Shown: positions 2,197 to 54,744 of the stretch, piece after piece | Numbering within the stretch: position 1 is the stretch's first letter | How the letters are laid out: the number at the start of each line of letters is the position of its first letter | Assembly: GCA_041740355.1 (NCBI GenBank) | Contig: JBGSMD010000051.1 | Span: forward strand, 64,001-128,000 | Direction of reading: 5' to 3' | DNA from: Bdellovibrionota bacterium | Lineage (GTDB): Bacteria; Bdellovibrionota_C; UBA2361; CALJRW01 | DNA: 64,000 bases | Made by a program: the position numbers and the translations under genes | Notes under the pieces: model-generated | Databases searched by the model: none | Seen by the model: only the letters and a program-made list of their open reading frames with translations | Told to the model about the DNA's origin: nothing

Positions 2197-2342
2197 TATT
2201 GTATGTGCAAAAAGTTGTTTCCGTAGGGAATTACTTTTTCGGGGCTTAATATCCATCGGAGGGATAATAAAATCATATAGTTATGACAAAAATTAGAAAG
2301 TTACCTTTTAATATTCGAAAATTAATTTCTGTCATAAATATA
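2197..2342 (+). repeat. Dispersed three-hairpin intergenic element, copy 1
   Basis: Shares GGAGGGATAATAAAATCATATAGTTATG exactly with copies 2 and 4; ATGAC...GTCAT distal hairpin; first hairpin degenerate. Confidence 0.9.
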
Positions 2343-2387
2343 TAAAAACCAAACTGGATTTTATAAATTACAGCACAAGATGCAATC

Positions 2388-3179
2388 ATGCCAATTACAA
2401 CAGATAATATTGATTTTGAGAGTACCCTAACTAAAAAATTAACTCTATTCTCATTAAATATCGCTCATGGAAGATGTAATAGCGTTCATCAACTTTTACA
2501 ATCTTCCAATCAAATTCACTTCAACCTAGATCAAATTGCCGAAGTCCTAATTCGCGAATCTCCGGACATCGTTGCTTTGCAAGAAGTTGATTATAATTCT
2601 TTTTGGAATGGCAGATTTGATCACATTACTTACCTCGCTGAAAAAGCGGGCTATCAGTATTATTTTAGCGGAAACCACACAAACCGACTTCAACTTTCAT
2701 ATGGCACTGCTTTGCTTTCAAAATATCCGCTTACAAATCAGGTTTCACTTAACTTGGTAAATTATCGATTACTTCCCGCTAAAGGTCTAGTGTCTGCTAC
2801 GATTCTTGTTAATGACCTAGAAATTGACGTGACCTCGCTCCATCTAGATTTCACTAGTAATCTGCTAAGAAAAAAACAGATTGAACAGTTAACGGAGCAC
2901 CAACAATCAAGAAAGCGAACCTGTATTATTATGGGTGATTTCAATGCAGACTATCAGAGTTCAAATTCTGTGATTCGAAAAATTAGTGAAATTTTAAAAT
3001 TAACTTCCTTTAAGCCCGAGAATAGTTTTGGAGGTACATTTAGATTTACTAAAAAACGTTTGGATTGGATCCTTGTTCCAGAAGAAATACAATTTCTTAG
3101 CTACAGGCATTTAGATGACATACTCTCCGATCACATGGCAATCGTGGCGGATCTTAGCATTAAAGTAAAAGATAATTAG
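2388..3179 (+). CDS. Endonuclease/exonuclease/phosphatase (EEP) family protein
   Basis: NIAHG, PDIVALQEVD, HLD, MGDFN, LDWI and SDH catalytic motifs. Confidence 0.9.
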   Translation: MPITTDNIDFESTLTKKLTLFSLNIAHGRCNSVHQLLQSSNQIHFNLDQIAEVLIRESPDIVALQEVDYNSFWNGRFDHITYLAEKAGYQYYFSGNHTNRLQLSYGTALLSKYPLTNQVSLNLVNYRLLPAKGLVSATILVNDLEIDVTSLHLDFTSNLLRKKQIEQLTEHQQSRKRTCIIMGDFNADYQSSNSVIRKISEILKLTSFKPENSFGGTFRFTKKRLDWILVPEEIQFLSYRHLDDILSDHMAIVADLSIKVKDN

Positions 3180-3301
3180 ATGAAAGTTTAAATCGAAGCA
3201 TAAAAAGAAGAATGTAAATATTCTTTGTGGGTACTAACTCATTCCAGAATTATTACTAAATTCGTATTGGGTAGGATGTTTTAACTTTGGACTTCATGAA
3301 T

Positions 3302-3449
3302 TATAGAAAGTCCAAAAAGTAATTTACGTAAGAAAATTACTTTTGGGGGCTTTCTATCCCCCGGAGGGATAATAAAATCATATAGTTATGACAAAAAAGC
3401 AAATTAATTTATATACTTTTTACGTAATTTATTTTTTGTCATCACTATA
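3302..3449 (+). repeat. Dispersed three-hairpin intergenic element, copy 2 (reference copy)
   Basis: TATAGAAAGTCCAAAAAGTAATTT..AAATTACTTTTGGGGGCTTTCTA, then ATCCC-CCGGA-GGGAT, then TATAGTTATGACAAAAAA..TTTTTTGTCATCACTATA. Confidence 0.92.
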
Positions 3450-3450
3450 A

Positions 3451-4218
3451 CTATAAAAGAGCGTGACTAACTAATTCAACTTTAACCTTAATCGCTGGAT
3501 CAATCATTTCCATAGCTTCTTCAAAATGTCTGATACATTTATTTTCCATTTCAACTTCATGGATATCTCTAGGAATAAAAAGATGCAGAGAATGATGCTT
3601 TCTAGAATATAAAAAGGAAGATGTCAGAAGTTGATAAGATTTTGTTTCTACACCACAGACTATCCTTTCTTGGTTCAGGCAGTCGATGGCATTGTTATGT
3701 GTACTCCAAAGGCTATACCTCGAGGCGTTAACTCCCGTTGTTTCTGAATGATAAAAGACCATTCGAGTACGAGCATTAAATTCTTGCAAGTCCGGTATGC
3801 GGGCTAGAGGAACGTTCTCGGGAAATACCTCACCTGAATTGAAACGAAAGAATTTTAATGCCTGATTAAGTTGATGCAGAGATGGACTAGTATTCTTAGC
3901 TATTTTCGAAAATGTAGCCAAATTTTTAGAACACCAAAGTGCTGTAGTGCAAACAGTGCCTAAAACGATTTCAGTTTTAACATCTGCTGATTCCATCAAA
4001 TATATTTTCACTGCTGCTACAGGATCCTTGGTATCATTAATTAAATTAGTTAAATGTAGAACTTCAGTCTCTTTATCTAACGGAGCATTTTGAATCCTTA
4101 TGACTCCTGCTTTGAGTTGCTCTCCATAGCACAAGATACCGTGCTGAAGGTGAAGATAATGGCCACTGGCTAATTCAGCTTTAAGTTCAAATCTTATTTT
4201 TGCTAATGGCTCGTGCAT
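3451..4218 (-). CDS. Hypothetical protein
   Basis: 255-aa ORF, no recognised motif. Confidence 0.6.
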   Translation of the reverse strand: MHEPLAKIRFELKAELASGHYLHLQHGILCYGEQLKAGVIRIQNAPLDKETEVLHLTNLINDTKDPVAAVKIYLMESADVKTEIVLGTVCTTALWCSKNLATFSKIAKNTSPSLHQLNQALKFFRFNSGEVFPENVPLARIPDLQEFNARTRMVFYHSETTGVNASRYSLWSTHNNAIDCLNQERIVCGVETKSYQLLTSSFLYSRKHHSLHLFIPRDIHEVEMENKCIRHFEEAMEMIDPAIKVKVELVSHALL

Positions 4219-4269
4219 TGCCTTTATTTATCATTTTTTGATTTGTTAAGAAAATATTTGAGTACTTAT

Positions 4270-4608
4270 TTAGGATAGGAGAATCTTTTCCAGAAGCGGA
4301 AGATGAAAGGCAAGTTCGTTAGCACTAGTTACCGAATCAAGATATTGTCCTTCCAAAGTTTGGACATTCATAATACTTAGCTTGTTTCCTTCAAAGTGAT
4401 ATCGGGAGAGGCTTTGAACTAAATTGCCGCAGTGCTTAACATTTAAAACTAGCTCTTTACCAAGAGAAGCAACTTGAAAGGACTTATCGGGATCAATAAC
4501 AATCCAATTTTCGGAGGCTTCTATTGCAAATTGCTGCAAACGCTGAAGAGCTTGCGCTGATATGACGGGATGCTGGCTTAAATCTCTTGAGAAAATAATT
4601 AATAACAT
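4270..4608 (-). CDS. Hypothetical protein
   Basis: 112-aa ORF, co-oriented with neighbours, no motif. Confidence 0.45.
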   Translation of the reverse strand: MLLIIFSRDLSQHPVISAQALQRLQQFAIEASENWIVIDPDKSFQVASLGKELVLNVKHCGNLVQSLSRYHFEGNKLSIMNVQTLEGQYLDSVTSANELAFHLPLLEKILLS

Positions 4609-4755
4609 AACTAATAATTATGAACAAAAAACATGTAGTGATACTAATATGGGAGAATCATGCCAGCAATCCAACACAACAGAAGCTTCGGTTATAGTAT
4701 GTCGGCTAAGGTGCAATTAGAATAAACTCAGTTTAATAAATAAAATGAGATTATT

Positions 4756-9369: not shown

Positions 9370-9373
9370 CAGT

Positions 9374-27892: not shown

Positions 27893-29311
27893 TTAGCCTC
27901 CAACTGGTGTCCATCCTCTCTGTAATGGGCCCCAATACCTAGAAGCTCCCAGTGCATTTCCACTAGCACTTGTACCAGCAATCACACCATCTTGCTTAAC
28001 TAAGCTTGAGGTAATTGAAATTGCCGCATTGGCATTGGTGTATGGATTAGAAAGCTGATCATGTGAAAAACCAGTGCTCTGTAATCCATAGTTAGTGGCA
28101 TCGGCTGTCGACAACTGAAACAAGCCTCGAGATCCCGATCCAAACTGACCTACATCTCCAACTGTGCCAGTATTGTACGAGGATTCTTTTCCAGCCAACT
28201 CTGTAAAGTATCTCGCCCAAGATTCTGAACTACCATCGATACCATATTTGGCTCCATCAGCAGGTACATATCCATTTAAATCAGAATTCTTCACTTGATT
28301 ATTCATGTAAGCAAACAAATCATCTTTGCTGACAGACCCAGAAGTAGAAACTGGCATCGATCCATCACCACCAAGATACTGGCTATAATCGGCATTCCCA
28401 ATATTTGTTCCTAATGGATTGGAGTTTGTTCCTAAAGGATTATTTCCAACAGCAGTCCATGGGTTTTGTTGATCCTGTGGAACACCACCTTGTGTTGGCA
28501 TCATCTGGTTCTGCTGATTCATGGCATTTAATGTGTTCAATACTTGCCCAGCCATAATCAGACTAGTGTTACCAGTTAGTGTGCCAACTGTAGTTAAGAT
28601 TGTTCCCAACCAACTTCCATTTTGGTTATTATTTGATCCAAAAATTCCGAAAATTCCATTACCATTACCACCTCCAATTAAGCCTGGAATACCTCCACCT
28701 GTGTTTCCGGATCCAACGTTATAACCACCGAACATTGAACCTCCGATATTACCAATGTTGCCCATGTTCCCAAAATTACCCATTCCAGGGATTGATTGAT
28801 TATATGCAGCTGGGGCTAGAAAAGTAGCAATACAATGACGGTAGTCATAGTAACAGCTTTGATCGGGATAATAATTTTGAGAATTATTTGTTAAGTAAGA
28901 CTGGACACCTGTAGAATTTAAATTCTGAAACATTGAACCAATGTTACCGGCACTACCTTGTAAATAACCAGTAAGTACGCCTAATAAAATTCCTAAGAAG
29001 GGATTATCTTGAGTGACATCACTAAGACTCACATTAGAAACTGTACGCGTCAGTCCGGCGGCAGCACCGATATTACCATCAAGATCATCTATCCTCTCGG
29101 CTTGCAGGATATCTTCGGGAGTTAAATCTAAACGATCAACATCTGTCCCTTGTTGTTGCAATGCTCGCTGACAAATCTGCTGTCCTAATGGATGGTTTGC
29201 GCAGGGATTTCCATTTTGAGCGAAGACAACTGCGGCAGGTTGTAGAAAAGTTGTTAAGAGACAAACAACAACTGTGATACTACGCGGAGATAAGATTAAT
29301 TTTCTTTTCAT
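27893..29311 (-). CDS. Secreted Gly/Asn-rich protein with C-terminal lytic transglycosylase (SLT/lysozyme-like) domain
   Basis: Catalytic ESSYN, SRGLFQLS, NPYTN, ASRYWG; signal peptide; long low-complexity G/N/Q region. Confidence 0.8.
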   Translation of the reverse strand: MKRKLILSPRSITVVVCLLTTFLQPAAVVFAQNGNPCANHPLGQQICQRALQQQGTDVDRLDLTPEDILQAERIDDLDGNIGAAAGLTRTVSNVSLSDVTQDNPFLGILLGVLTGYLQGSAGNIGSMFQNLNSTGVQSYLTNNSQNYYPDQSCYYDYRHCIATFLAPAAYNQSIPGMGNFGNMGNIGNIGGSMFGGYNVGSGNTGGGIPGLIGGGNGNGIFGIFGSNNNQNGSWLGTILTTVGTLTGNTSLIMAGQVLNTLNAMNQQNQMMPTQGGVPQDQQNPWTAVGNNPLGTNSNPLGTNIGNADYSQYLGGDGSMPVSTSGSVSKDDLFAYMNNQVKNSDLNGYVPADGAKYGIDGSSESWARYFTELAGKESSYNTGTVGDVGQFGSGSRGLFQLSTADATNYGLQSTGFSHDQLSNPYTNANAAISITSSLVKQDGVIAGTSASGNALGASRYWGPLQRGWTPVGG

Positions 29312-29396
29312 ATTAAAACCCTAACTTAAGTAAGTATAAAATAAATCACGTTAAAAATTAACGTTTTGTTTTAACTCACTCTTAATGTTGTTCTAG

Positions 29397-29506
29397 TTAT
29401 GCAAATTAGAAAAATCATCCCTACCAATTTCGGTAGGTTAAGAACCTAGTTTGCATAAGCCATTATGACAATGTTCAATTTGCTTTAGTAAATTAATTAT
29501 TGTCAT
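29397..29506. promoter_or_regulatory. Two long hairpins in the traW-like/transglycosylase intergenic region
   Basis: TTATGCAAATTAG..CCTACC/GGTAGG..CTAGTTTGCATAA (29397-29458) and ATGACAAT..ATTGTCAT (29465-29506). Confidence 0.5.
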
Positions 29507-29572: not shown

Positions 29573-30361
29573 TCATTTAAAAAAGGGATGGAGGACGCCC
29601 GACGCATGGTAATCCTCATCATAGTTCTTTAATGCATTAATCCCGCGATCTATGAAAAATGCTTCAGTTGTTGTGCGAAATCTTGTAGGTAGGCATTCCA
29701 CCGCTAAACCCTTAGCAATACGATGTATTTCAGTTTTTTTGTTCGGATAGTATACTAAGAGAGTAACTTTTTCCCCCAAAAACTCATTAATATCCTGATC
29801 TTTAGGTGCTTTTTCAGGGCTTATAAACAGTAAATCTTGAACAGGTGTATTTCCTGATTGGTCATTCGTTTTGGAAATATTTTTTCTGATAGTTTTAGAT
29901 TCAGTACAATTTGGTAGAGGAATGGCTTGTTCCATCTGGATTACCTGTTTTTTCAACTGCGGCAAATATTCTTCATTGACATACTTTCGTACTGCATCTT
30001 TATCCAATTCAAATTTGCGGTAGGACTTATTAATCAACTCCGGATCTGGATAATCTACTCCAGATTTACCTTGAATATGACCAAAAATTTTCGGCTCAAC
30101 AAGCTCTTGATTCCAAGGATTTTTAGGGACTTGTCCCATCATCCGTAAAATATGTCGACTGCCTGGTTCCACTCCAAACCTAGGTGCAGATTCATTTAAC
30201 TCTGCTTCTGAAAATTTATAGGAAGTAATCTGCTTCTGTAGTGATATTTGTTGTTCGTAAGTTAAACCTTTTAAGATCTCCCGTGGATCTCCTTGAGCAA
30301 AAAGAGAATTTGCTACTATGGTTAGCAGGCAGACAAGAACAAGAATTTTAAGTTTCATCAT
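29573..30361 (-). CDS. traW: TraW-like periplasmic protein (F-type T4SS pilus assembly)
   Basis: Signal peptide; G...DYPDPELI..helical..PLPNCTESKT resembles TraW N-part; RIAKGLAVECLPTRF resembles TraW C-terminal L...FGI..VP. Confidence 0.45.
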   Translation of the reverse strand: MMKLKILVLVCLLTIVANSLFAQGDPREILKGLTYEQQISLQKQITSYKFSEAELNESAPRFGVEPGSRHILRMMGQVPKNPWNQELVEPKIFGHIQGKSGVDYPDPELINKSYRKFELDKDAVRKYVNEEYLPQLKKQVIQMEQAIPLPNCTESKTIRKNISKTNDQSGNTPVQDLLFISPEKAPKDQDINEFLGEKVTLLVYYPNKKTEIHRIAKGLAVECLPTRFRTTTEAFFIDRGINALKNYDEDYHASGVLHPFFK

Positions 30362-34787: not shown

Positions 34788-34934
34788 TCTAGTTATTCCA
34801 AAAAATAAATTACCTAATAATAAAATAGAGCAACTTGTTTTTTGTAATAACTATACGATTTTACTATCCCTCTGGGGATTAGAAAGCCCCAAAAAGTAGT
34901 TTCCTTCAGTAAATTACTTTTTGGACTTTCTATA
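34788..34934 (-). repeat. Dispersed three-hairpin intergenic element, copy 3 (inverted)
   Basis: TAGAAAGCCCCAAAAAGTAGTTT..AAATTACTTTTTGGACTTTCTATA, ATCCCTCTGGGGAT, TAGTTATT..AATAACTA. Confidence 0.88.
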
Positions 34935-35851: not shown

Positions 35852-36266
35852 CTCAACAATTACTCTCATATCAATACTAGTTGTTTCAGGGTCAAAATCT
35901 GAATGATTTTGTTTAATAGTGCTCACGGCTAATATTTTCTCCCCCCTTCTGTTCCTCTTTTGCTAAAGCTACAAGCAGACAATAAAGCTTCGCAGGACCA
36001 GGCTACCCTCAATTTACTTTATAAATTGATCTTTAAAGGAGATTTGAACTTTCTTGCAAAGATTACCTGAACGCTTACTTAAGCCTCAATGAAATGCTTA
36101 TTCTATAAAAAATTGCAGAACTAGTGGCGATTGCTCGTGGTTTTCGCATACTTAGTCCTTGTTATGTCCGGGATTTAAAATGTAATCCGATATTTTAACC
36201 TTCCCCACGAATACTTCTTAAATCACTAGAAGCATTACAACTAAATACCTTGATAGTTATTGTAAT

Positions 36267-37016
36267 ATGTTGAAATTAGTATCCCCGACATTTACCGTAT
36301 CCAACTCTGGAAAAATATCAAAATATTTATTTCCGATTGACTTAAGTTCCTTAAATAGCAATCTAAGGTTGGATGTAATCAATACCTTTTTATCATCAAA
36401 TGGACTTTTGCCACTTACCAGATTAGGCGAAGCAGAAAAAGGCGAATTAGAATTTATTGGGATTAATGGATTTTATTCTGATCCCTTTGTCTCCCGGATA
36501 GATTTTCAGACGAAAAGCTTTAATCGCGAATTTAACCACCTTTGCCTGCTAAGCCCGGCGTTAGAAGGATGCTCAGGAACCATGGTCGTACCAATTGTTA
36601 ATAATCAGTATGTCCTACTTGTTGAACAATTTCGCCCAACAATTGGCGAAATGACTTTAGAGGTACCTCGGGGTTTTATAAACCCAGAAGAATCACTGCG
36701 GGTTAATAATTCCTTTGGTAATGCCTTACGTGAACTTGCCGAGGAAACTGGATTAGATCAAAGCCGACTGATCTACTTTCCAAATTTAGTAGGTGAAGTT
36801 TATGAAAACTCGGGAGTCTCAACCAATAGAAATAAAGTATTTCGTGTCTCGATAACAATTCCCGATGAACAACTAAACAATCTAATTAAAACCAATCACT
36901 TAGACCAAGGTGAAGTCGATCAGCTTGTTAATACAAAACTAATCGCAATTAAAGATTTGAAACATAAGATTAAAGATCAGCACTCTGCTACTGCCCTATG
37001 GTTAGCACTAGATTAG
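36267..37016 (+). CDS. NUDIX hydrolase (ADP-ribose pyrophosphatase-like) with N-terminal extension
   Basis: LVEQFRP.....LEVPRG and [10 protein letters not shown] Nudix box. Confidence 0.8.
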
Positions 37017-41888: not shown

Positions 41889-43135
41889 TAGTTTAACGCC
41901 TTAACTTTAAAATGTGAGGCAAGATTATTGGAAGAGACAACAGCATCTTCATGAAACCCATATCCTAAATAACTTCCGGCATAAAAAATATTAGAACGAC
42001 CATTAAAGGACTTGATTATTTTTTGAGTTAGTAAACTTTCACTGGTATAAAGTGGATGATAATATTCATACTCTTTAATAATCTTACGCGGATCAATTTG
42101 ATGATTAGGACTGAGCGTTACTAAATATCTCTCTTTGGTCGTCAGTCCTTGTAATCGATTCATATCATAAGTAACTGATAGTGACTGTCCATCCTCAGTT
42201 TCTTCAGCATTATAGTTCCAGGAAGCCCAAGCCCGAGGATTTTTTGGTAAGACACTTAAATCGGTGTGCAGAACTGTATGATTATAATTATAGGTCCACT
42301 TTGAAAAACAATTAGTTTCTTCAATAGAAGGATTACTAAAAATTGGTAAAATTTGATCGGCATGCAAAGCAAAAATCAGATAATCAAATTTATCTTCTGA
42401 GCTTATTGTCTTTACAGTCACACCAATATCGCCGCGAGTAATTAGCTCCACTGGGCTATCAAGTAATATTTCCCCTTTGAAGTTTTGCTTAAATTTCTTG
42501 ACATATTCCTGACTTCCACCGACTACCGTTTGCCATTTTGGACGATCTTGAAGTGACAATAATCCGTGATTCTTGAAGAAATTAATAAATGTTAAGGCTG
42601 GGAACTTGAGCATCTCAATACTAGGCGTTGACCAAATCGAGGCCCCAATGGGCAAAATGTAATCATTAATCAAAGTCTTGCTATATTTTTTTGACTTTAA
42701 GTAGTCTCCCAGAGTCAATTCTAAGAGACCATTTCCCCTTAAATCTTCTGAGGAATTCTTACAAAACAATTGCAACTCAAACAAAAATCTATAAAATTTT
42801 GGGCGTAAAAGATTAAGCCGGTCCGCAAAAAATCCATTCAGTCCAGTTCCGGCATATGCCAGCTTCCGAGATTTAGAGTGAAAGGCAAATGACATATCAG
42901 AATATCGTATTGGTACATCAAGGATCTCTAAAAACTTAGTAAAGGTTGGATAAGTTTGATCGTTAAGAACAATAAATCCCGTGTCTACTGCAATGCCCGG
43001 CGAAACTTCCACAGTATTAGTATGCCCACCCAAATAGGAGTTGGCTTCGAATATCGTTACTTGGTAACTATCTTGAAGCAACTGAGCAGAGACAATCCCA
43101 GCGACACCTCCTCCAATTATTGCAACTCTTTTCAT
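41888..43135 (-). CDS. FAD-dependent oxidoreductase (UfaD/RSP_1091-like fatty acyl desaturase)
   Basis: IIGGGVAG, LGGHTNT, VDTGFIVLN..TYP, FFKNHGLL, AWASWNY, GFHEDA. Confidence 0.85.
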   Translation of the reverse strand: MKRVAIIGGGVAGIVSAQLLQDSYQVTIFEANSYLGGHTNTVEVSPGIAVDTGFIVLNDQTYPTFTKFLEILDVPIRYSDMSFAFHSKSRKLAYAGTGLNGFFADRLNLLRPKFYRFLFELQLFCKNSSEDLRGNGLLELTLGDYLKSKKYSKTLINDYILPIGASIWSTPSIEMLKFPALTFINFFKNHGLLSLQDRPKWQTVVGGSQEYVKKFKQNFKGEILLDSPVELITRGDIGVTVKTISSEDKFDYLIFALHADQILPIFSNPSIEETNCFSKWTYNYNHTVLHTDLSVLPKNPRAWASWNYNAEETEDGQSLSVTYDMNRLQGLTTKERYLVTLSPNHQIDPRKIIKEYEYYHPLYTSESLLTQKIIKSFNGRSNIFYAGSYLGYGFHEDAVVSSNNLASHFKVKALN

Positions 43136-46245: not shown

Positions 46246-46542
46246 CTATTCCGGCTTGTAAACTTCTTCTTCCAGCTTACTAGTAATTTTATGACGGCAA
46301 GATTCAGACATTTTTTTATTCGGTAATTGTTGTTTGAAATTATCTGATTTAGCAACAACATCCAAAGACTTGATCTGACGAAAAAAGCGTCGACAAAATG
46401 TGCAATGAAAATGATGGAGATAGAAGGTTACTTTTTCTTTAAAACTAAGTTTGCGATCTAAATAATGTGAAGACAGCTCAGAATATCGCTGACAAGATAC
46501 AATCAAAAATAATCCTAAAAATTTTGATATCCGACTTCTCAT
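46246..46542 (-). CDS. Zinc-finger (ZAS/zf-HC2) anti-sigma factor
   Basis: SC....LSS...D..L......H..HC..C motif; 4-nt overlap with upstream sigma. Confidence 0.8.
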   Translation of the reverse strand: MRSRISKFLGLFLIVSCQRYSELSSHYLDRKLSFKEKVTFYLHHFHCTFCRRFFRQIKSLDVVAKSDNFKQQLPNKKMSESCRHKITSKLEEEVYKPE

Positions 46543-47102
46543 TTTTTATACCAATTTTTTTGTAAGCAGTTCCTTAAGCGAGCTCTAATCCGATAAAGTA
46601 TCGTCCAATAGTTAGACGGAGATATATCTAACACTTGGCAAACTTCTTCCGCCTCTTTTTCTTCTAAGTATTTCAAAACGAATACTCGGCGCATGTTTTC
46701 TGGGAGTTTCTCCATACAACTCTGAAAGGCTTGAAGAAATTCTTCATTTTCAATCACTAAATCAGGATGTTCTAGCCAATTTGGAACATAAGTCTTCCAA
46801 ATACCCCAAGCATTAAAATTTCCATCATCGTCATTACCAGGTTCTAAATTGAAATTATAACTTACGGTATCTTCCTTACTGGTCTTACGAAAATTATCAA
46901 TAATTTTGTTACGAAGAATACTGGTTAACCAAGTTTTCTCTGTGGATCGACCTGCAAAACCCTCTCTGGCCCGCCAAGCTGACATTAATGTTTCCTGAAC
47001 TAGATCCTCAGCTAACTCAGGGCTTTTAACTCGTGAAAGCGCATAATTATAAAGATAATCGCCATAATTCTCTAGCCAAGTTTTAGGATTAAAATCATTC
47101 AT
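46539..47102 (-). CDS. ECF sigma-70 factor
   Basis: YGDYLYNYA, AEDLVQET, KTWLTSILRNKIID, region 4 EVCQVLDIS...LYR.R.RLR.CL. Confidence 0.92.
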   Translation of the reverse strand: MNDFNPKTWLENYGDYLYNYALSRVKSPELAEDLVQETLMSAWRAREGFAGRSTEKTWLTSILRNKIIDNFRKTSKEDTVSYNFNLEPGNDDDGNFNAWGIWKTYVPNWLEHPDLVIENEEFLQAFQSCMEKLPENMRRVFVLKYLEEKEAEEVCQVLDISPSNYWTILYRIRARLRNCLQKNWYKK

Positions 47103-47199
47103 CGGTGCAAATTAGAGTATGCAATTCTTACTGTGATGGAAAGAGGTTAAACAATAATATTTTAAAGATTGTAAGTTTTAACGCACTAAGGAAGCTTTA

Positions 47200-47343
47200 T
47201 ATAGTTATGACAAAAACTAATTTCCGAATATTTAAAAGTTAGTTTTGTGATTTTTGCCATAACTATATGATTTTATTATCCCTCCGTGGGATAGTAAGTC
47301 CCAAAAAATAATTTCCAACGGAAGTTACTTTTGACTTACTATA
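47200..47343 (-). repeat. Dispersed three-hairpin intergenic element, copy 4 (inverted)
   Basis: TATAGTTATGACAAAAA..TTTTTGCCATAACTATA, ATCCCTCCGTGGGAT, ATAGTAAGTC..GACTTACTAT. Confidence 0.9.
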
Positions 47344-47393
47344 TATGTCTAACTTACTTTTAAAGAGAAAAATAATTTAATCTAGGATCTATG

Positions 47394-48047
47394 TTACGGT
47401 TTTTTCTTAAAGATTCGAGCGTTGAGTACCTCATGTGCAAGTTTGGAGAGTTCTGTCTTACCAATCGATCTTATCTCGGAACCTAGTTCTTGTAACTCTT
47501 TAAAGAATTCTGCCGCACTCCATTTATAAACTTGATGGTCATACTTAGTTCCAACCCCAACACGAATCTCGCCACTTAGTTTCTCTCCCACAAAATGGCA
47601 GAGTAGCTCTGCCGCAGACTGCTTGGCTAGGAATGCTTCCTGCAGATCCACATCATTCTCGTGTGAAACATGTTTGGTATATCCACTAAGTAATTCATCC
47701 GAACAAAGTTTAGCAGCGAATGAGCCATACGCGCAGATCAAGCTTGATAAGACATCAAATGACTTAGAAAAGGAGTATTCGTGGTTAGCCGCAATAATTA
47801 AGATAACTGTGGCACTGGCAATAAATTGTGAGGCTTCTTTAAGCAAGTCTTTTTCATCCCGAGAAAGATTAGGAAGGCCTGTTTTAATTTCTAACTGAGC
47901 ATCCCGAATTGTCTTGGATAGATGTGTTAATGCTAAAACAAGTGGCTGATGATTTTCGATAGTTGAACGTAGCCGATGCTGCACCAAGAGTGAGTCTACT
48001 TCAATAAAAGAATTTGCAGGCTTTTCTATAAGCTGGGCGATATGCAT
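47394..48047 (-). CDS. Hypothetical helical protein
   Basis: 217-aa ORF, no motif. Confidence 0.6.
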   Translation of the reverse strand: MHIAQLIEKPANSFIEVDSLLVQHRLRSTIENHQPLVLALTHLSKTIRDAQLEIKTGLPNLSRDEKDLLKEASQFIASATVILIIAANHEYSFSKSFDVLSSLICAYGSFAAKLCSDELLSGYTKHVSHENDVDLQEAFLAKQSAAELLCHFVGEKLSGEIRVGVGTKYDHQVYKWSAAEFFKELQELGSEIRSIGKTELSKLAHEVLNARIFKKKP

Positions 48048-48159
48048 ATAATTTTGCTCGGAAAGTCCAAACTATAGCTTTGGATAAACCACAAATGTTA
48101 TGATCTATATAATATAACTGTGTCGATACTTATTTCAATTATAATTTAATGATCAGCAA

Positions 48160-48540
48160 CTAGGCTGCTTGACGCCATTCATATTGAATTCGCTCAATTG
48201 TGCCTGGTAAAGTACGATCTACTAATTCAAGAATTTTAATTAAGGTATCCTGTTCAACAACATTTAAAGCACTAGGATGAGGAAATAATGATAATAAAGT
48301 ATCCACAACCCCTTCTGGGCTTAAACGAAACATTCCAGCTTCACAAAATTTTTCGGCAATATCTAAAATATCAAAAGCATACTCATACTTTAATGCCTCA
48401 ACAAACATTGGCTCTAAATCTTTAAGAAAGATGTAAATTAATTCATCATATACTTCCCCGGGATATGACCTAATTCCTGCCGCGTAGGCAGAGATAATTG
48501 TTTGAAAATTTTCTTGGTATAATTTTAACTTGTTACTCAT
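48160..48540 (-). CDS. Hypothetical protein
   Basis: 126 aa; TAATG coupling to upstream ORF. Confidence 0.6.
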   Translation of the reverse strand: MSNKLKLYQENFQTIISAYAAGIRSYPGEVYDELIYIFLKDLEPMFVEALKYEYAFDILDIAEKFCEAGMFRLSPEGVVDTLLSLFPHPSALNVVEQDTLIKILELVDRTLPGTIERIQYEWRQAA

Positions 48541-48755
48541 TATAGTTTCTCTGAAAGATTGCGGAACACTTCATTCATCCCTGGAGTGATTGAACCAGAG
48601 TCGATTTTTGCACTTTTAAGAAATCTTGCAGTCTCAGTGGCTAAACCTTGTAATTGTCTTTCCAAAACTTCTGGTGAGTGCCGAAATGCAGCTGTAGCAA
48701 GTGGAGTCCGATTACCACTCTTGCCACCATTTACTAATCCATTTCCCTTAGACAT
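48540..48755 (-). CDS. Small hypothetical protein
   Basis: 71 aa; stop overlaps next start. Confidence 0.55.
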   Translation of the reverse strand: MSKGNGLVNGGKSGNRTPLATAAFRHSPEVLERQLQGLATETARFLKSAKIDSGSITPGMNEVFRNLSEKL

Positions 48756-48901
48756 TTTTGAGCCATTAAAGAATAAAACTCTCTAACTCTCTATTCTTTA
48801 ATTTTTAAGCTTATGCTTCTTAAATTGCCCTGATTACCGATTCTACAGAATGAGCTTTCTATAGTTTGCAATTAAGATTTATTCTGTTATTTTAATAGCT
48901 T

Positions 48902-50641
48902 ATGAATGACCTGCGAACTAAACTGATAATTACCCTAGAAAGTACCTGCAATTTATCAAAAGTAGAGCTTGATAAGTTAATTAGCCTGCCGAAAGAAATT
49001 AAAAATGGTGATTATTCATTTCCTTGTTTTTTATTAGCCAAACAAACGGGAGAAAACCCAGCTGCTCTAGCTCAAAAACTTAAAATTACCCTTGAACTAC
49101 CTACAGGGTTCCATAAAGTAGAGGCAGTAGGACCATACTTAAATTTCTTTATCGATCGACAAGTTGAAACAAATCGAGTTATTCAAGAAATCCTGACCAA
49201 GAAACTGAACTACGGTAAAGGAGATCATCAGGCTGAAACAATTATCATTGATTACTCGGGACCAAACATAGCTAAGCCCTTTCACGTCGGCCATCTACGA
49301 ACAACAATTATTGGCTTTGCTCTTTATAATGTTTTTAAACATCTGGGCTTTCAAACTTTTGGTATCAATCACTTAGGTGATTGGGGAACTCAATTTGGAT
49401 TTGTGTATGCTGGTTGTAAGATTTGGGGACGGCCAAGCGAAGATTCAATCGAGGCATTAGTTAAACTTTACATTGAAGCTAATACCCTGCGGAAAGCTCA
49501 AGATGAAAATCAATTAACTGCTGAACAAACAGAATATCCTAATGTTAATGAAATGGCCCGGGACTATTTTATTCGTTTGGAAAACGGAGACAAGGAAGCC
49601 GTTGAGTTTTGGCAATGGTGTTTAGATATTAGCTTAGTTTATCTAAAAGCAACCTATAAAACATTAGGTATAGATTTTGATTTCTACACAGGTGAATCTT
49701 TTTACATTCCAATGTTTCCGCAGATTAAAGAAACTTTAGAAGCGAGCGGTTTACTAACAGAGTCCCGAGGAGCAATTGGGATTGAGTTAGATGAAAAATT
49801 AGGTTTTGCTAGATTACTAACTCCTGATGGACGCTCACTTTATTTAACTAGAGATGTAATTACCGCCGACTACCGCGAAAAAACTTTTCAACCTAAAAAA
49901 ATCATTTACGTCGTGGGAGCTCCTCAAACTCTTCATTTTCAACAGCTTGTTGCCGTAATGCAAAAGATGAGTCACCCAGTTGCGGATAAGATTATTCACA
50001 TTCCTTACGGACACGTTCCTGGAATTAGCACACGAGCTCTGAAAGATAGTGATGGCAGTTTATCCTTGACAGCTTTAATTGAGGAAGGAAGTTCTCGTGC
50101 CCTAGAAACATATCAACAAAGTGTCAGCTCAAGACCAGAGAACATAGATGAAAATGCGATTGCTAAATCTGTTTCGCTAGGAGCAATTTATTTTAATTAT
50201 TTATCACGAACTAATAATAAGGATTTCCATTTTAATTGGGAAGAAGCCTTAAGTTTTCAAGGAGATACGGGGCCATATTTGCTTTATGCCTTAGCTCGAA
50301 TCAATAGCATGATTCAGAAAGCCAGTAATAGTGCTATTACTTTTAATCCAGAGACGGACTTCAAAGTATTAAACACTGATGAAACCTACGAAACTATCAA
50401 ACACTTAAATAGCTTCCAAGATATTCTCTACAAAATATCGGAAGACTACGAGCCAAACCACTTAGCGCAATATGCACTAAGTTTGGCAAAACTAGTTTCT
50501 CGCAATTACAATCAACTTAGAGTAGTTGGAGAAACAGATAAGAATCTAGCAGAAGCACGATTAGGACTTTTTACTGCATGTAAATATGTGTTAGAAATAT
50601 CAATCAAACTGCTTGGAATTCCACCACTTGAAAGAATGTAG
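48902..50641 (+). CDS. argS: Arginine--tRNA ligase
   Basis: GDYSFP, PNIAKPFHVGHLR (HIGH), NHLGDWGTQFG, GDTGPYL.Y..AR, C-terminal ERM. Confidence 0.96.
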   Translation: MNDLRTKLIITLESTCNLSKVELDKLISLPKEIKNGDYSFPCFLLAKQTGENPAALAQKLKITLELPTGFHKVEAVGPYLNFFIDRQVETNRVIQEILTKKLNYGKGDHQAETIIIDYSGPNIAKPFHVGHLRTTIIGFALYNVFKHLGFQTFGINHLGDWGTQFGFVYAGCKIWGRPSEDSIEALVKLYIEANTLRKAQDENQLTAEQTEYPNVNEMARDYFIRLENGDKEAVEFWQWCLDISLVYLKATYKTLGIDFDFYTGESFYIPMFPQIKETLEASGLLTESRGAIGIELDEKLGFARLLTPDGRSLYLTRDVITADYREKTFQPKKIIYVVGAPQTLHFQQLVAVMQKMSHPVADKIIHIPYGHVPGISTRALKDSDGSLSLTALIEEGSSRALETYQQSVSSRPENIDENAIAKSVSLGAIYFNYLSRTNNKDFHFNWEEALSFQGDTGPYLLYALARINSMIQKASNSAITFNPETDFKVLNTDETYETIKHLNSFQDILYKISEDYEPNHLAQYALSLAKLVSRNYNQLRVVGETDKNLAEARLGLFTACKYVLEISIKLLGIPPLERM

Positions 50642-50660
50642 TGTCGCTTAGCGACACTAC
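50638..50660. terminator. Perfect hairpin overlapping argS stop
   Basis: GTAGTGTCGC-TTA-GCGACACTAC, 10-bp stem. Confidence 0.5.
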
Positions 50661-50756
50661 CACGTCGTAGCCTTTGGCGAACGAGACGGGCTTGCCATGT
50701 CGAAGCTTTAGGCGAATGAGACGGGCTTGCCACGTCGAAGCTTTAGCGTAGACGGG
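50660..50756. repeat. GC-rich 35-nt tandem REP-like repeat (about 2.8 copies)
   Basis: CCACGTCGTAGCCTTTGGCGAACGAGACGGGCTTG / CCATGTCGAAGCTTTAGGCGAATGAGACGGGCTTG / CCACGTCGAAGCTTTAGCGTAGACGGG. Confidence 0.85.
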
Positions 50757-50790
50757 TTGTAATGAAATTCTAGCTTTAATAAAAAGTATT

Positions 50791-53232
50791 ATGCAAATCA
50801 TCAAATTCGGCGGATCCTCAGTTGGTAGTGCCATCCGCATCTTAGCAGTTAAAGACATTATCAAAGATAAACTTTCTCAAGATCCGCTCTGCTTAGTAGT
50901 CGTTTCCGCTCTTTCAGGCACCACAGATTTACTTAAAAAATCTGCTGAATTTGCGGTTCAAAAAAAAGGGTTTTCAGAGTTTGTTGAAGAAATCAAAAAC
51001 AAACATTTTAATTGTATTGCCGACTTAGGAATTGATAACCCTGCTTTAATCCTAAGAATCCAGGAAGAAATAAATAATCTAAATGAAAAACTTGTTAGCA
51101 TTAGCTTACTGCAAGATCTAACCAACAAAACTTTAGATCAACTCCTTTGCCTTGGAGAAATCTTTTCCTCGGAAATCGTGGCCAGCCTGTTAACGAAATT
51201 TGACATGCCCGCAGAAGCAATTAATGCTCGAGAGATTATTAAAACTGATAATTCATACTCCTGTGGAATTGTTGACTTTAAATTAAGCAATGAATTAATC
51301 ATTAAGCGTTTTGAAGCTGAGACTGGAGTCAAGGTTATTACTGGCTTTGTTGCTGAAAGTGCTGAAGGAAATTTAATTACTTTAGGTCGTGGAGGATCAG
51401 ACTATACAGCTTCAATTATTGGCGCGGCACTTAATGCCAAAGTAATTGAAATCTGGACCGATGTTGACGGGATGTACACAGCTAATCCTGCAACTGTTAG
51501 TAAAGCTTTTCCGCAAGCCCATCTAACATTTGCCGAAGCAATGGAATTATCACACTTTGGTGCCAAGGTAATTTATCCACCTTCGATTCAGCCTGCGATG
51601 ATTAAGAACATTCCAATCTTAATCAAAAATAGTTTCAATCCTTCTGCTTTAGGAACTGAAATAAGCAATAACAAGCAGGCGAGTCGCCAAAGTATCTGTG
51701 GAATTACTTCCATTGGGCAAACCTCACTTCTTAGATTAGAAGGCTCCGGTTTAGTTGGGGTAAGTGGTACAGCTAGCAGGCTTTTTGCGACCTTAGCCAC
51801 TAGTAAAATTAATGTCATCTTAATTACCCAAGCTTCCTCTGAGCATACAATATGTTTTGCCGTTCAACCCGATCAAGCTTTTCGAGCGAAGGAAACTGTT
51901 GATCAAGAATTTGCACTAGAAATTCAGAGCAACTTAATTAATCCCTTAGTAATCGATCGTGACTTAAGCATTATTTCTATTGTCGGTGAAAACATGAGAA
52001 CGGTTCCTGGCACTGCTGGCAAAATGTTTAATGCCCTCGGTAACAATGGTATAAATATTAACGCCATTGCTCAAGGTTCTTCAGAAATTAATATCTCGGC
52101 AGTAATTGCTCAGAAAGACGAAGACAAGGCACTGAAGGTATTACATGAAGAATTCTTCTTTCCAGATCATAAAACGGTTAATGCCTTTTTAATCGGAACG
52201 GGTTTAATCGGCGAAGAATTAATCAAGCAAATAAAAAATCATAGCGATACACTAGCAACAGAACATGGACATCAAGTCCGAGTTATTGGTTTAGCTAATA
52301 GTCGAAAAATGATTCTAGCAGAAGCTGGTATTAAACCAACAGAATTATCATTAGAGTTACTACTTGCTGGTCAAGATTCTAATCTGGACGAAATTCGTAA
52401 GTTTATTGTTTCTTGTAACTTACCAAACAGCTTAATTGTTGATTGTACAGCCAGCGATGAAATTGCCAGTCATTATCAAAGTTTTCTGGAATCAAAGATT
52501 TCCGTAGTAACTCCTAATAAAAAAGCACAAAGTACTGATTATCTACAATACCTTGAGTTACAGAGAGTTGCTGCTAAACGTGGAGCTAGCTTTATATATG
52601 AAACCAGTGTTGGTGCCGGATTGCCGGTAATTAGTAGTCTAAAGGACTTAATTAAAAGTGGTGATCAGATCCAAAGAATTGAAGCAGTTCTTTCGGGAAC
52701 ATTAAGTTTTATTTTCAATTCATTTGATGGCAGTAAAAGTTTCTCTGCTGTTGTGCTTGATGCGCAAAAAGCTGGATTTACTGAACCAGATCCACGTGAT
52801 GATTTAAATGGACTTGATGTCGCTCGAAAAATTTTGATTCTTGCTCGTGAATGTGGTGCAAATCTAAACTTAAAAGATGTGGTAATAGAAAATTTAGTGC
52901 CTGAAAATTGCCGGGCAACAAATTCAACTGCAGAGTTCTTCCAATTACTTCAGGAATCCGATAGTTACTTCCTAGATAAACTATCCACAGCTCAGAAAAG
53001 AAATTGCAAACTTTGTTACATTGCCAGCTTTGCTGATGGCCAAGCTAAAGTAGAATTAAAAGAAGTAGATCAGGATCACCCCTTTTATAATCTATCTGGT
53101 AGCGACAATATAATTTCGTTTACAAGCGATCGTTACAAACTTCGCCCGCTTGTTGTAAAAGGTCCTGGAGCAGGTGCGGCCGTTACGGCAGCAGGAGTTT
53201 TTGCTGATATCATTAGATTAGCTGGACATTAA
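50791..53232 (+). CDS. thrA: Bifunctional aspartokinase/homoserine dehydrogenase I
   Basis: KFGGSSV, LGRGGSDY, WTDVDG, two ACT domains, YETSVGAGLP, EPDPRDDL, GPGAGA.VTA. Confidence 0.96.
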   Translation: MQIIKFGGSSVGSAIRILAVKDIIKDKLSQDPLCLVVVSALSGTTDLLKKSAEFAVQKKGFSEFVEEIKNKHFNCIADLGIDNPALILRIQEEINNLNEKLVSISLLQDLTNKTLDQLLCLGEIFSSEIVASLLTKFDMPAEAINAREIIKTDNSYSCGIVDFKLSNELIIKRFEAETGVKVITGFVAESAEGNLITLGRGGSDYTASIIGAALNAKVIEIWTDVDGMYTANPATVSKAFPQAHLTFAEAMELSHFGAKVIYPPSIQPAMIKNIPILIKNSFNPSALGTEISNNKQASRQSICGITSIGQTSLLRLEGSGLVGVSGTASRLFATLATSKINVILITQASSEHTICFAVQPDQAFRAKETVDQEFALEIQSNLINPLVIDRDLSIISIVGENMRTVPGTAGKMFNALGNNGININAIAQGSSEINISAVIAQKDEDKALKVLHEEFFFPDHKTVNAFLIGTGLIGEELIKQIKNHSDTLATEHGHQVRVIGLANSRKMILAEAGIKPTELSLELLLAGQDSNLDEIRKFIVSCNLPNSLIVDCTASDEIASHYQSFLESKISVVTPNKKAQSTDYLQYLELQRVAAKRGASFIYETSVGAGLPVISSLKDLIKSGDQIQRIEAVLSGTLSFIFNSFDGSKSFSAVVLDAQKAGFTEPDPRDDLNGLDVARKILILARECGANLNLKDVVIENLVPENCRATNSTAEFFQLLQESDSYFLDKLSTAQKRNCKLCYIASFADGQAKVELKEVDQDHPFYNLSGSDNIISFTSDRYKLRPLVVKGPGAGAAVTAAGVFADIIRLAGH

Positions 53233-53263
53233 CCTACACTAATAAAGTAATCTGAGTTCAAAC

Positions 53264-54559
53264 ATGAAAACCTTTAGTACCAATAACCATTCTGTCTTGT
53301 TTGAGATTGCCGATGCCGTAATGTTAGGGCAAGCTCCAGATGGTGGGCTTTTTATGCCGGAGAATATTCCACAATTATCCTTGGGGCAGTTAAATAGTTT
53401 TAGAAATTCATCCTTCAATGAGATTGCCCTACAAATAAGTAAGCAGTTTTTTTGTCCTGAAATCCCAGAAAACGATCTTAAAAAATTAATTGATCAGGCT
53501 TATGATTTTGATGCTCCTTTAAAAACTGTTGCGAGTGACTTACATTTTCTGGAACTATTTCATGGACCAACTTTAGCTTTCAAAGATTTTGGTGCGCGCT
53601 TTATGGCGCAGTTGATGTCTTATTACCTTAGCCAGAATAATCACAAACTTAATATCTTAGTAGCAACCTCGGGCGATACAGGTAGCGCGGTTGCCGCGGC
53701 ATTCCATAAAGTACCTAATATTAATGTTGTAATTTTATTTCCTAGTGGACGAGTAAGTAAAATTCAGGAAATGCAGTTAACGACTTGGGGAGAGAATATT
53801 CAAGCTTTGGAAATTGATGGAACTTTTGATGATTGCCAACAATTTGTTAAGTCCGCTTTCCAAGATCGAGAATTTAAAAGCAACTTTCAGTTAACTTCTG
53901 CGAACTCAATTAACATTTCTAGATTAATACCTCAGAGTTTTTATTATTTTTATGCTTGGTCAAGACTCTCCGAAAAAAAATCATGTTTTATTGTTCCTAG
54001 TGGGAACTTAGGAAATGTATCAGCCGGAGTCATCGCTCAAAGGATGGGCCTACCTGTTGATCAGTTTATTATCGCAACAAATTCCAATCGAGTTGTTCCT
54101 GATTATTTCGAGTCGGGTAATTTTGAACCAAAGCCCTCTGTTGCTACAATTTCCAATGCTATGGATGTAGGTAATCCCAGCAATCTAATTAGGTTGCAAA
54201 ATATTTTTAAAGGAGAATTTACTAAACTAAAGGAGCTAGTCTCAACTTGCTCTTTTAACGATCAGGAAACCAGCGAAGCAATTAATGAAGTTTATCAAAA
54301 ATATAATTATTTAATCTGCCCGCACACCGCAGTTGGATATCTGGCGGCAAAGGAAGTGCCCTCTGATTATCAGAAGATAGTTCTAGCTACGGCACATCCC
54401 AATAAATTTGCCGATGTCTTAGAAAATGTTCTTGGATTCGAACTTCCAACAAACGAACTATTAGCGCAAGTCGCTCTAAAGCCAACAAGTGCTACAAAGC
54501 TTCCAGCGAACTATCTTACAATTAAGAATTACATTCAGCTCTCTTTAACTGAAAGATAA
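53264..54559 (+). CDS. thrC: Threonine synthase
   Basis: ELFHGPTLAFKDFG, ATSGDTG, SANSIN, VPSGN.GN, ATAHP.KF. Confidence 0.95.
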   Translation: MKTFSTNNHSVLFEIADAVMLGQAPDGGLFMPENIPQLSLGQLNSFRNSSFNEIALQISKQFFCPEIPENDLKKLIDQAYDFDAPLKTVASDLHFLELFHGPTLAFKDFGARFMAQLMSYYLSQNNHKLNILVATSGDTGSAVAAAFHKVPNINVVILFPSGRVSKIQEMQLTTWGENIQALEIDGTFDDCQQFVKSAFQDREFKSNFQLTSANSINISRLIPQSFYYFYAWSRLSEKKSCFIVPSGNLGNVSAGVIAQRMGLPVDQFIIATNSNRVVPDYFESGNFEPKPSVATISNAMDVGNPSNLIRLQNIFKGEFTKLKELVSTCSFNDQETSEAINEVYQKYNYLICPHTAVGYLAAKEVPSDYQKIVLATAHPNKFADVLENVLGFELPTNELLAQVALKPTSATKLPANYLTIKNYIQLSLTER

Positions 54560-54597
54560 ATTTTCTTGGCAATAGATCTCTGATCAAGTAAGTTAGT

Positions 54598-54744
54598 TAT
54601 AGTGATGACAAAAGATTAATTTCGTAAAAATAAATTAACGAAACTTATTTTTATCATCACCATATGATTTTAATTTCCCTCCGAGGGATAGGAAAGCCCC
54701 AAAAAGTAATTTCCTTAGGTAATTAACTTTTTGGACTTTCTATA
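54598..54744 (-). repeat. Dispersed three-hairpin intergenic element, copy 5 (inverted)
   Basis: TATAGTGATGACAAAA..TTTTATCATCAC, TCCCTCCGAGGGA, GAAAGCCCCAAAAAGT..ACTTTTTGGACTTTCTATA. Confidence 0.9.

Follow-up and report, generated by a model that had tools for sequence, protein, structure and literature searches.

RUP is a 107 bp repeat present in 108 copies in Streptococcus pneumoniae, and its pairing with IS630-Spn1 has been argued from the likeness of the terminal inverted repeats (TIRs) and from insertion at TA, as set out in part of PMC2229807. The portion of the same source that concerns the Correia/NEMIS elements describes them as 100–155 bp long, with TIRs of ~24 bp, TA termini, a target duplication and long stem-loops in their transcripts (PMC2229807). 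For ISY100, the published account gives the transposase alone as sufficient in vitro and the target TA as duplicated.

How does the repeat described here compare with these systems? It is an element of 147 bp, found in five copies in the window, by which we mean the whole stretch of 64,000 nucleotides that was analysed. Like RUP, as far as the description of RUP in that source extends, it is a short, intergenic, high-copy repeat whose TIRs resemble the ends of a resident IS630-family insertion sequence (IS) and which inserts at TA; the case for its mobilisation in trans rests on the same two arguments. Unlike RUP, it is longer, each of its TIRs pairs with an inverted copy further in, and it consists of two long hairpins and a G+C-rich one. 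The two were compared by description only, at which level no sequence relation is evident, and the host of the 147 bp element is an uncultured Bdellovibrionota-like lineage. The Correia/NEMIS elements of Neisseria, compared on the general properties given in that source only, are similar in size, TIRs, TA termini and duplication. However, in Correia one TIR pairs with the other over the full length of the element, whereas each TIR of the 147 bp element pairs locally with its inner copy, and for the 147 bp element a transposase partner is evident. As with ISY100 and the IS630/Tc1/mariner group, the partner IS has an NF033545 transposase (HTH plus DDE_3) and TA is duplicated on insertion; the 147 bp element differs in being non-coding and in having only about 30 bp per end in common with the IS. 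Palindromic MITEs (non-autonomous transposons) derived from Tc1/mariner elements are known from eukaryotes, among them the Stowaway-like elements and MADE1, which comes from Hsmar1. The 55 bp derivatives of our family, two terminal repeats placed back to back so as to make one hairpin, are like the minimal mariner MITEs; unlike the eukaryotic elements, the main 147 bp form is a composite of two palindromes with a spacer hairpin, and its host is a bacterium.

We conclude that the 147 bp element is very probably a MITE, most likely moved in trans by a resident IS630-family IS of ~1.2 kb. Because it shares its end sequences with a resident IS630-type IS, it belongs to a commonplace class of bacterial repeat. 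Its novelty is limited to the family. A blastn search of the PLSDB plasmids gave no match to the element, a literature search for its end motifs returned three occurrences, all unrelated, and one for MITEs in Bdellovibrionota returned nothing relevant.

Searches with an nhmmer profile and with a covariance model agree in recovering exactly five copies in the window (table 1). The positions given for them by an earlier, sequence-only reading hold good, as does their intergenic placement: each copy falls in a gap between ORFs of 80 aa or longer, and no such ORF overlaps any of them. Alignment also bears out the common layout of three hairpins, H1, H2 and H3, and the imperfect ends described for copies 1 and 3 (entries 1 and 3, table 1). 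When 20 nt flanks are included in the alignment, conservation extends from TATAG to CTATA.

Table 1. Copies of the 147 bp element, and a remnant of its 229 bp sister family, in the window.
Entry	Feature	Positions	Strand	Recovered by	Ends or stems
1	MITE copy 1	2197–2342 (end 2341/2)	+	nhmmer 115.7 bits, cmsearch 117.8 bits	ends TATTG...ATATA
2	MITE copy 2	3302–3449	+	nhmmer 131.0 bits, cmsearch 159.6 bits	
3	MITE copy 3	34788–34934 (start 34788/9)	−	nhmmer and covariance model	right end CTAGA; H3 stem GTTATT/GGAATAAC
4	MITE copy 4	47200–47343	−	nhmmer and covariance model	H1 stem TAAG/CTTA
5	MITE copy 5	54598–54744	−	nhmmer and covariance model	
6	sister-family (f2) weak remnant	29338–29484	+	nhmmer f2 profile, 41.1 bits, E 1.9e-10, profile positions 15–168	

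Three of the copies were said to stand in sense orientation before genes, and they do. Copy 1, a divergent sequence in a divergent spacer, is 45 nt upstream of an Exo_endo_phos gene (2388–3179, +), copy 3 is 30 nt upstream of a YggX-type gene (PF04362; 34467–34757, −) and copy 4 precedes an ECF-type sigma factor gene (46539–47102, −) by 97 nt. Copy 2 occupies a convergent spacer, 122 nt past the stop of ORF 2388–3179 and 1 nt off the stop of ORF 3451–4218 (−). Copy 5 is antisense and lies between a threonine synthase gene (ending at 54559) and an FMN reductase gene (starting at 54774), these gene assignments, like those above, being from Pfam. The weak remnant (entry 6, table 1) is in the spacer between ORFs 27893–29311 and 29573–30361.

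The five copies had been extrapolated to hundreds per genome. The 3.27 Mb genome does hold 172 non-overlapping loci of the family, roughly one for every 19 kb; of these, 87 are full length. The element is 144–148 bp long with a G+C content of 26–31%, and its TIRs extend over about 25–30 bp, as in TATAGAAAGTCCAAAAAGTAATTTACGTAA against TATAGTGATGACAAAAAATAAATTACGTAA, both read inward. Across 84 full copies, each position of TATAG is retained in 75–83 and each position of CTATA in 79–84, and the flanks are A/T-rich, with no further repeat. Some copies are nearly identical: 22 of 3486 copy pairs reach at least 97% identity, and copy 2 is 99.3% identical to a copy at C38:27406–27553 of the same genome (G000). 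Clustering at a 17% cut-off places copy 4 in a subfamily of 29 members, copy 2 in one of 18 and copy 3 in one of 15. Since copies 1 and 5 are singletons at this cut-off, the proposed subfamilies '1+4' and '2+5' are only loosely supported; copy 5 does fall near the 18-member subfamily, and the shared 3′ flank on which the grouping drew lies outside the element. A sister MITE family, f2, of about 229 bp, has the same terminal repeats as the 147 bp element.

Is there a transposase with matching ends? A search for one of the IS630/Tc1 type was positive in the same genome. The DDE_3 profile has a single match there, at 113.8 bits (C8:19378–19791). The gene is intact and its 319 aa product, with an N-terminal HTH followed by DDE_3, scores 184.8 bits against NCBIfam NF033545, 'IS630 family transposase' (cut-off 100), covering profile positions 4–299 of 299. 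The IS is about 1209 bp long and spans two contigs with an overlap of 141 bp, one end being at C8:19189 and the other at C10:42359. It has four different flanks at each end, and all eight border on TA, which belongs to TATAG. Left ends of the 147 bp element agree with the IS ends at 24–26 of the first 30 nt and right ends at 19–26, while the left end of the 229 bp family agrees at 27. The likeness is confined to these ends of ~30 bp; the interiors are unrelated. The pairing recurs in G002, which has the same H1–H2–H3 element and a 70%-identical transposase, with IS ends that also start TATAG. In G021 a 60%-identical transposase gene is interrupted, and the first 12 nt of the IS ends, beginning TATAG, are unchanged. 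The congeneric G001, a 94%-complete assembly that has the MITE, gave no transposase match with the 319 aa query.

Could another transposase be responsible? The element might be a REP/REPIN-type repeat spread by a RAYT (HUH, IS200-like), or a palindrome-associated derivative of IS200/IS605. Its units are palindromic, and a Y1_Tnp search of the genome finds five ORFs of 324–341 aa, though weakly, at 31.6–36.3 bits. However, none of the listed loci of the 147 bp family adjoins any of the five, and the element has true TIRs, equal to the ends of an IS630-type IS, together with a TA duplication. REPs are G+C-rich palindromes of 20–40 bp that cluster round a RAYT gene and lack both TIRs and a target-site duplication; this element is A+T-rich and 147 bp long. 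IS200/IS605-derived elements have subterminal hairpins without TIRs and insert beside a fixed tetra- or pentanucleotide without duplication. Here terminal hairpins are combined with inverted-repeat ends and a duplicated TA, and an IS200/IS605 derivation is very improbable. The REP/RAYT variant of the sequence-only reading is hardly credible on this evidence. A DDE_Tnp_1 search of the genome returned one broken match only, at 27.7 bits.

If the element is a MITE dependent on the IS630-type transposase, what do its insertion sites look like? Filled sites read TA–element–TA. A search on a set of copies turned up two paralogous sites that are empty, and each has a single TA (2/2); their identity to the filled sites is about 84–89% over 43–64 bp. 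Presence and absence were also compared with G001. Its syntenic sites lack all four of the window copies that could be tested (1, 3, 4 and 5), while the family is present elsewhere in that genome, where positive controls score 128–131 bits. Copy 1 is without counterpart in the syntenic locus L012 and copy 4 in locus L017; copy 3 is absent from a syntenic spacer that measures 74 bp, against 282 bp in the source genome, and copy 5 is absent from the orthologous spacer. Because the G001 spacers are too diverged, no orthologous filled/empty junction can be read at base resolution. A search of public reads found four DNA runs of one study, labelled as hot-spring and biofilm metagenomes, and no RNA run. 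Contigs from the four were compared with a 19.9 kb stretch that carries four 147 bp copies and one 229 bp copy. They end at the repeats, where word depth is 130–300 against about 10, and no joint cleanly removes the element. A scan of metagenome contigs with the gene between copies 1 and 2 found relatives of 25–33% identity only (four loci) and no close strain.

The element is thus small, non-coding and multicopy, with TIRs, a target-site duplication and presence/absence polymorphism, the properties of a MITE; its TIRs match a resident autonomous IS and its TA target is duplicated, as in the RUP-like, IS630/Tc1-mariner-dependent class. Of the two readings put forward earlier, it is the MITE that is upheld by these matching ends and by the empty sites, and not its REP variant or a structured RNA. 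Points that count against the MITE model include a sense-to-antisense ratio of 21:40 in co-directional spacers that it leaves unexplained, the unrelated interior of the IS, the missing transposase match in G001, the limited identity of the two paralogous empty sites, the divergence that hides orthologous junctions, and the upkeep of matched inner arms. The transposase would bind the outer repeats, excise the element and insert it at TA in A+T-rich intergenic DNA, by analogy with the route shown in vitro for ISY100. Insertions into genes would be purged by selection; two copies are inside ORFs.

What, then, do the hairpins mean? In H1, as in H3, an outer terminal repeat pairs with its own inner inverted copy, and the spacer between the two forms a short G+C-rich hairpin, H2. 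The double changes reported for the window are present: TAAG/CTTA in H1 of copy 4, GTGATG/CATCAC in H3 of copy 5 and GTTATT/AATAAC in H3 of copy 3. On 65 copies, both-side changes occur in 25 of 48 pairs against a shuffle mean of 12.5 (0/500 shuffles reach 25), and 87.1% of cells are paired against 42–52% when the partners are slid. Within subfamilies the picture is different: 218 single changes in stem pairs break the pair, 91 keep it, and there are 12 pair-keeping double changes. The double changes are real, but what they set apart are subfamilies, read here as lineages of source copies, and they do not indicate selection at each locus. Such differences may have arisen between source lineages because elements with matched arms propagate better; alternatively, the inner arm could have been recopied from the outer by fold-back or template switching. 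Inserted copies would then decay neutrally, mainly by pair-breaking changes. Private divergence is 2.9–3.2% in the outer repeats, 5.0–5.4% in the inner arms and 10–16% in the loops and H2.

A structured multicopy ncRNA or cis-regulatory RNA, its three hairpins under selection at the level of the transcript, would account for covariation above both controls, for the strong fold of copy 2 (z = −9.0; copy 4, z = −6.2; 0/200 shuffles as good for each), for the same layout in three genera, two of them beyond the source genus, and for the sense placement of three of the five window copies 30–97 nt before a start codon. But the opposite strands are nearly as foldable (z = −7.0 for copy 2 and −5.3 for copy 4, again with 0/200 shuffles as good), and pair-breaking changes far outnumber compensated ones within subfamilies. 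Conservation is lowest in H2 and the loops and highest in the outer repeats. Copies are missing at orthologous sites and their ends equal those of the IS. Nor is sense orientation before genes enriched genome-wide, co-directional spacers having 21 sense and 40 antisense copies. In Rfam searches nothing in the whole window reached gathering score, and positions 2150–3500 gave no match at E ≤ 1. The sequence-only reading had also taken a strand preference from a T.G pair in H1 that is T–A in copy 4. The difference is there, but private changes do not bear out the preference. Over all cells G.T exceeds A.C (246 against 120), an excess we rejected as evidence for an RNA strand because a few inherited positions account for it. 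Among private changes there are 76 G.T and 82 A.C cells (p = 0.69), so that neither strand is favoured. We regard the RNA reading as very improbable, and the MITE assignment keeps the repeat from being annotated as an RNA gene or regulator. Promoter-like matches number 6 in window positions 2000–3700 (7.8 expected) and 24 in 47000–55000 (23.8 expected). Copies 1, 2 and 4 contain a few of these matches, and the totals are not above those of shuffles. A scan of the same two intervals for terminator-like sites found none in copies 1, 2, 4 and 5.

Might some or all copies, as MITEs, have acquired a secondary role in the host through hairpins in read-through transcripts? On the model proposed for Correia/NEMIS, the hairpins could be sites of RNase III processing, stabilise mRNA or act as barriers to transcription. 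The bias towards antisense in co-directional spacers (two-sided binomial estimate ~0.02, uncorrected) would suit such a role, as would long stable hairpins on both strands and copies near start and stop codons, and there is a precedent in NEMIS RNA and RNase III, as treated in part of PMC2229807. Yet the use of spacer classes is proportional to spacer length, 111 copies being divided 61/31/19 between tandem, divergent and convergent spacers that comprise 245/134/60 kb of DNA. The copies decay by pair-breaking changes, and in the sister species not one of the four window copies that could be tested is present at the corresponding position. We consider such a role unlikely.

A further possibility concerns the spread of the MITE itself. 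Double changes preserve the match between the arms from one subfamily to another and from one genus to another, and a plain TIR model needs no inner arms. The double-hairpin design, each terminal repeat paired with an inner copy and kept so across at least three genera, with a conserved G+C-rich hairpin in the spacer, might itself be functional for spread, for example if an IS630-type transposase or a host factor had as its substrate a folded transcript, or DNA extruded as a cruciform or hairpin. This is quite improbable; if true, it would add to Tc1/mariner-type transposition a structure-dependent step that is not known from bacteria. The MITE and its presumptive IS630 partner make a clean natural pair, with an intact transposase, MITE sizes of 55, 147 and 229 bp and near-identical copies, which could serve the study of substrate choice by bacterial Tc1/mariner-type transposases.

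MITE copies are about 93% identical between the source species and G001, against 67–84% for syntenic genes, which hints that the element may have been exchanged recently between co-occurring lineages. The 147 bp repeat makes up about 0.7% of the genome, or about 1.1% with the 229 bp sister family. Of the 148 contig ends, 21 stop inside the 147 bp element, and 38, or one in four, are assembly breaks caused by the repeat.

A profile built from the five window copies, run against the assembly of the source genome, G000 (3.27 Mb, 74 contigs, 36.3% G+C), returned 239 matches at 172 non-overlapping loci, 87 full length and 85 partial, 18 of the latter being cut by a contig end. Within the window, which is C51:64001-128000 of G000, it recovers exactly the five copies first recognized from the sequence alone, and all five sit between ORFs, as had been stated. 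When these are aligned with 20-nt flanks, conservation spans TATAG to CTATA, with none beyond. In 84 full copies with flanks, the terminal TATAG is retained, per position, in 75–83 copies and CTATA in 79–84; immediately outside, A or T predominates over three bases at each end, and no longer direct repeat flanks the element. Read inward, left and right ends form an inverted repeat of ~25–30 nt. In hairpin H1 the left terminal repeat pairs with an inverted copy lying further in, and in H3 the right terminal repeat does likewise with a copy of its own; H2 is a short G+C-rich spacer hairpin, CCCCCGGAGGG. Three main subfamilies (n = 29, 18 and 15; mean identity 86–92%) leave 22 copies in small clusters.

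Smaller and larger relatives share these ends. In a family of about 229 bp (78 nhmmer matches in G000 at E ≤ 1e-5) the TATAG terminal repeats recur around an unrelated, G+C-richer interior; together the two families account for 38 of the 148 contig ends. A scan for 55-bp elements, which are only the two terminal repeats back to back, yielded seven short elements: six join a left end to a right end, and the seventh is an H1-like hairpin on its own. From their sequence the 55-bp elements look like deletions between direct repeats inside the 147-bp form. Neighbouring elements, the IS described below included, often abut and have the four bases TATA in common, an arrangement expected when the TA at the end of a resident element serves as the target of a new copy.

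Has the element moved? We searched both flanks of every copy separately against G000 and found two places where they lie adjacent and the element is absent. In both cases the empty site has one TA and the filled site reads TA-[TAG...CTA]-TA; a four-base duplication would require a two-base alignment gap. The single-TA empty sites anticipated for a MITE thus exist, and since they are paralogous rather than orthologous, at ~84–89% identity, the evidence for TA duplication is good but not perfect. In the congeneric genome G001, whose syntenic genes are 67–84% identical to those of G000, the spacers matching copies 1, 3, 4 and 5 fall short by about one element length and give only noise from the profile at E ≤ 10; two G001 copies, as positive controls, score 128–131 bits. 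G001 does carry the family, with copies up to 93% identical to those of G000, and none of the tested insertion sites is common to both. Such identity, set against that of the genes, suggests either recent exchange of elements or strong constraint on the source copies. Near-identical copies exist within G000: identity is 97% or more in 22 of 3486 copy pairs, and copy 2 has a counterpart at 99.3% on another contig.

What might have moved it? A Pfam DDE_3 search of G000 gave a single match (113.8 bits), whose open frame extends to the end of contig C8. From its own ATG the transposase has 319 aa, with weak HTH matches at the N-terminus; it scores 184.8 bits (cut-off 100) against NCBIfam NF033545, ‘IS630 family transposase’, over profile positions 4–299 of 299. 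A TATAG... repeat lies 110 bp past the stop codon, and the last 141 bp of C8 are the end of C10, where a second repeat is found; joined, these define an IS of ~1209 bp. One IS end has four different flanks (C8, C11, C18, C9), as has the other (C10, C12, C38, C48), indicating that the assembler collapsed about four copies. The sequence-only reading had proposed looking for an IS630/Tc1 or HUH transposase with matching ends, and G000 supplies one of the IS630 family: over the first 30 nt, the left ends of the 147-bp element are identical to the IS ends at 24–26 positions, its right ends at 19–26, and the left end of the 229-bp family at 27. Past ~35 nt the small elements bear no relation to the IS. 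One IS copy adjoins a gene for a long, Cys-rich repeat protein whose start resembles a signal peptide and which has many CxxC-type repeats. G000 also holds five paralogous open frames of 324–341 aa with weak Y1_Tnp (IS200-like/HUH) matches of 31.6–36.3 bits; among the listed loci of the 147-bp element, none adjoins any of the five.

The review PMC2229807 describes bacterial MITEs as repeats of <200 bp, A+T-rich, with TA at the ends, TIRs and a target duplication, and RUP/IS630-Spn1 is singled out as the case in which a transposase is indicated by resemblance of the TIRs and by TA as the target. The 147-bp element shows the same features. For ISY100, the IS630-family transposase is reported to excise and integrate on its own, duplicating TA. 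Our literature searches met the end motifs in no relevant context and found nothing on MITEs in Bdellovibrionota. We conclude that the 147-bp element is a MITE, most likely IS630-dependent; the type is well known and, as far as the literature searches show, the family is new.

What, then, of the structured ncRNA or cis-regulator that had been offered beside a MITE/REP-class family? Both strands of copies 2 and 4 fold far better than shuffled sequence (z of −5.3 to −9.0; 0 of 200 shuffles as good), and the double changes reported in the stems hold in the five-copy alignment. Across the window Rfam gave no match at the gathering score, and the region of copies 1 and 2 gave none at E ≤ 1. We aligned 65 copies, 63 of them distinct and all from G000 or G001, to a covariance model, to which the alignment was also fitted. 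In it 87.1% of cells pair, and both sides have changed at 25 of 48 pairs; shuffles average 12.5, none of 500 reaching 25, and sliding the partners gives 12–18. This signal is mostly subfamily swaps (A-U 29 versus U-A 26 at an H1 pair; G-C 39 versus U-A 13 at an H3 pair). Within the three subfamilies, 218 single changes break a pair and 91 keep it, while 12 double changes keep the pair and five do not; this pattern is decay. Among private changes, G.T and A.C are about equal (76 versus 82 cells, p = 0.69; 33 versus 30 distinct states, p = 0.80), so neither strand is favoured. Private divergence is 2.9–3.2% in the outer repeats, 5.0–5.4% in the inner arms and 10–16% in the loops and H2. Decay and divergence together are as expected if end recognition at transposition is what matters.

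Placement was followed in 111 copies well inside contigs, with genes called by an ORF heuristic. Co-directional, divergent and convergent spacers hold 61, 31 and 19 copies, in proportion to their DNA (245, 134 and 60 kb), and two copies lie inside long ORFs. Copies 1, 3 and 4 do stand upstream of genes in sense, as noticed earlier; this is no family trait, since co-directional copies are 21 sense to 40 antisense, a modest bias (estimated p ~0.02, uncorrected).

How far does the family reach? Counting G000 itself, 41 genomes of the order were searched and six have a match. In G001 it is full length; BLAST aligned the 5′ part alone in G002 and G003, and G007 and G012 gave marginal matches of ~30 nt. 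The G002 and G003 elements keep the H1-H2-H3 layout with different stem sequences; in H3, for example, TTATCCC/GGGATAA replaces TTATGAC/GTCATAA. The G002 transposase is 70% identical, with TATAGTAAAGACAGAAAGAAATTTCCG at both IS ends; that of G021 has 60% identity and a single stop codon, with IS ends that begin with the same 12 nt. The G000 query found no transposase in the 94%-complete G001 assembly. Scanning 185,579 species genomes for the exact pattern gave 33 stretches, 12 and 16 in two MAGs and five single; only one of the five extends past the 24-mer, in a MAG titled uncultured Bdellovibrionales. The noteworthy feature is the local pairing of every terminal repeat with an inverted copy further in, a complementarity that persists between subfamilies and between genera. 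It may arise from selection at the level of propagation, or from recopying of arms by fold-back or template switching; a structure-dependent transposition step is the boldest reading, and an unlikely one.

Another short intergenic repeat lies in the window between a sigma-factor gene and ORF 36267-37016; it has ~10 places in G001 at 76–83% identity and only three short stretches in G000.

Positions of the 147-bp element and associated features (C, contigs of G000; L, loci)
Feature	Position
Copy 1	window 2197-2342(+)
Copy 2	window 3302-3449(+)
Copy 3	window 34788-34934(-)
Copy 4	window 47200-47343(-)
Copy 5	window 54598-54744(-)
Copy in the G000–G001 comparison	L002:1501-1647
Copy in the G000–G001 comparison	L008:1501-1647
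229-bp family, example	C13:41946-42174
229-bp family, weak remnant	window 29338-29484
55-bp element	C12:11794-11848
55-bp element	C48:69273-69327
55-bp element	C65:8141-8195
55-bp element	C16:103577-103631
55-bp element	C63:64647-64701
55-bp element	C11:64535-64589
Abutting elements	C5:42032-42179 with 42176-42404
Abutting elements	C16:53933-54080 with 54077-54211
Abutting elements	C42:138-284
Abutting elements	C8:19165-19215
DDE_3 match	C8:19378-19791
IS repeat	C8:19189
IS repeat, second	C10:42359
Cys-rich protein gene	L019:3-1190 (C8)
Y1_Tnp frame	C16:249549-249779
Y1_Tnp frame	C51:14303-14527
Y1_Tnp frame	C51:22273-22503
Y1_Tnp frame	C26:27811-28020
Y1_Tnp frame	C63:206275-206484
Other intergenic repeat	window 35879-36082
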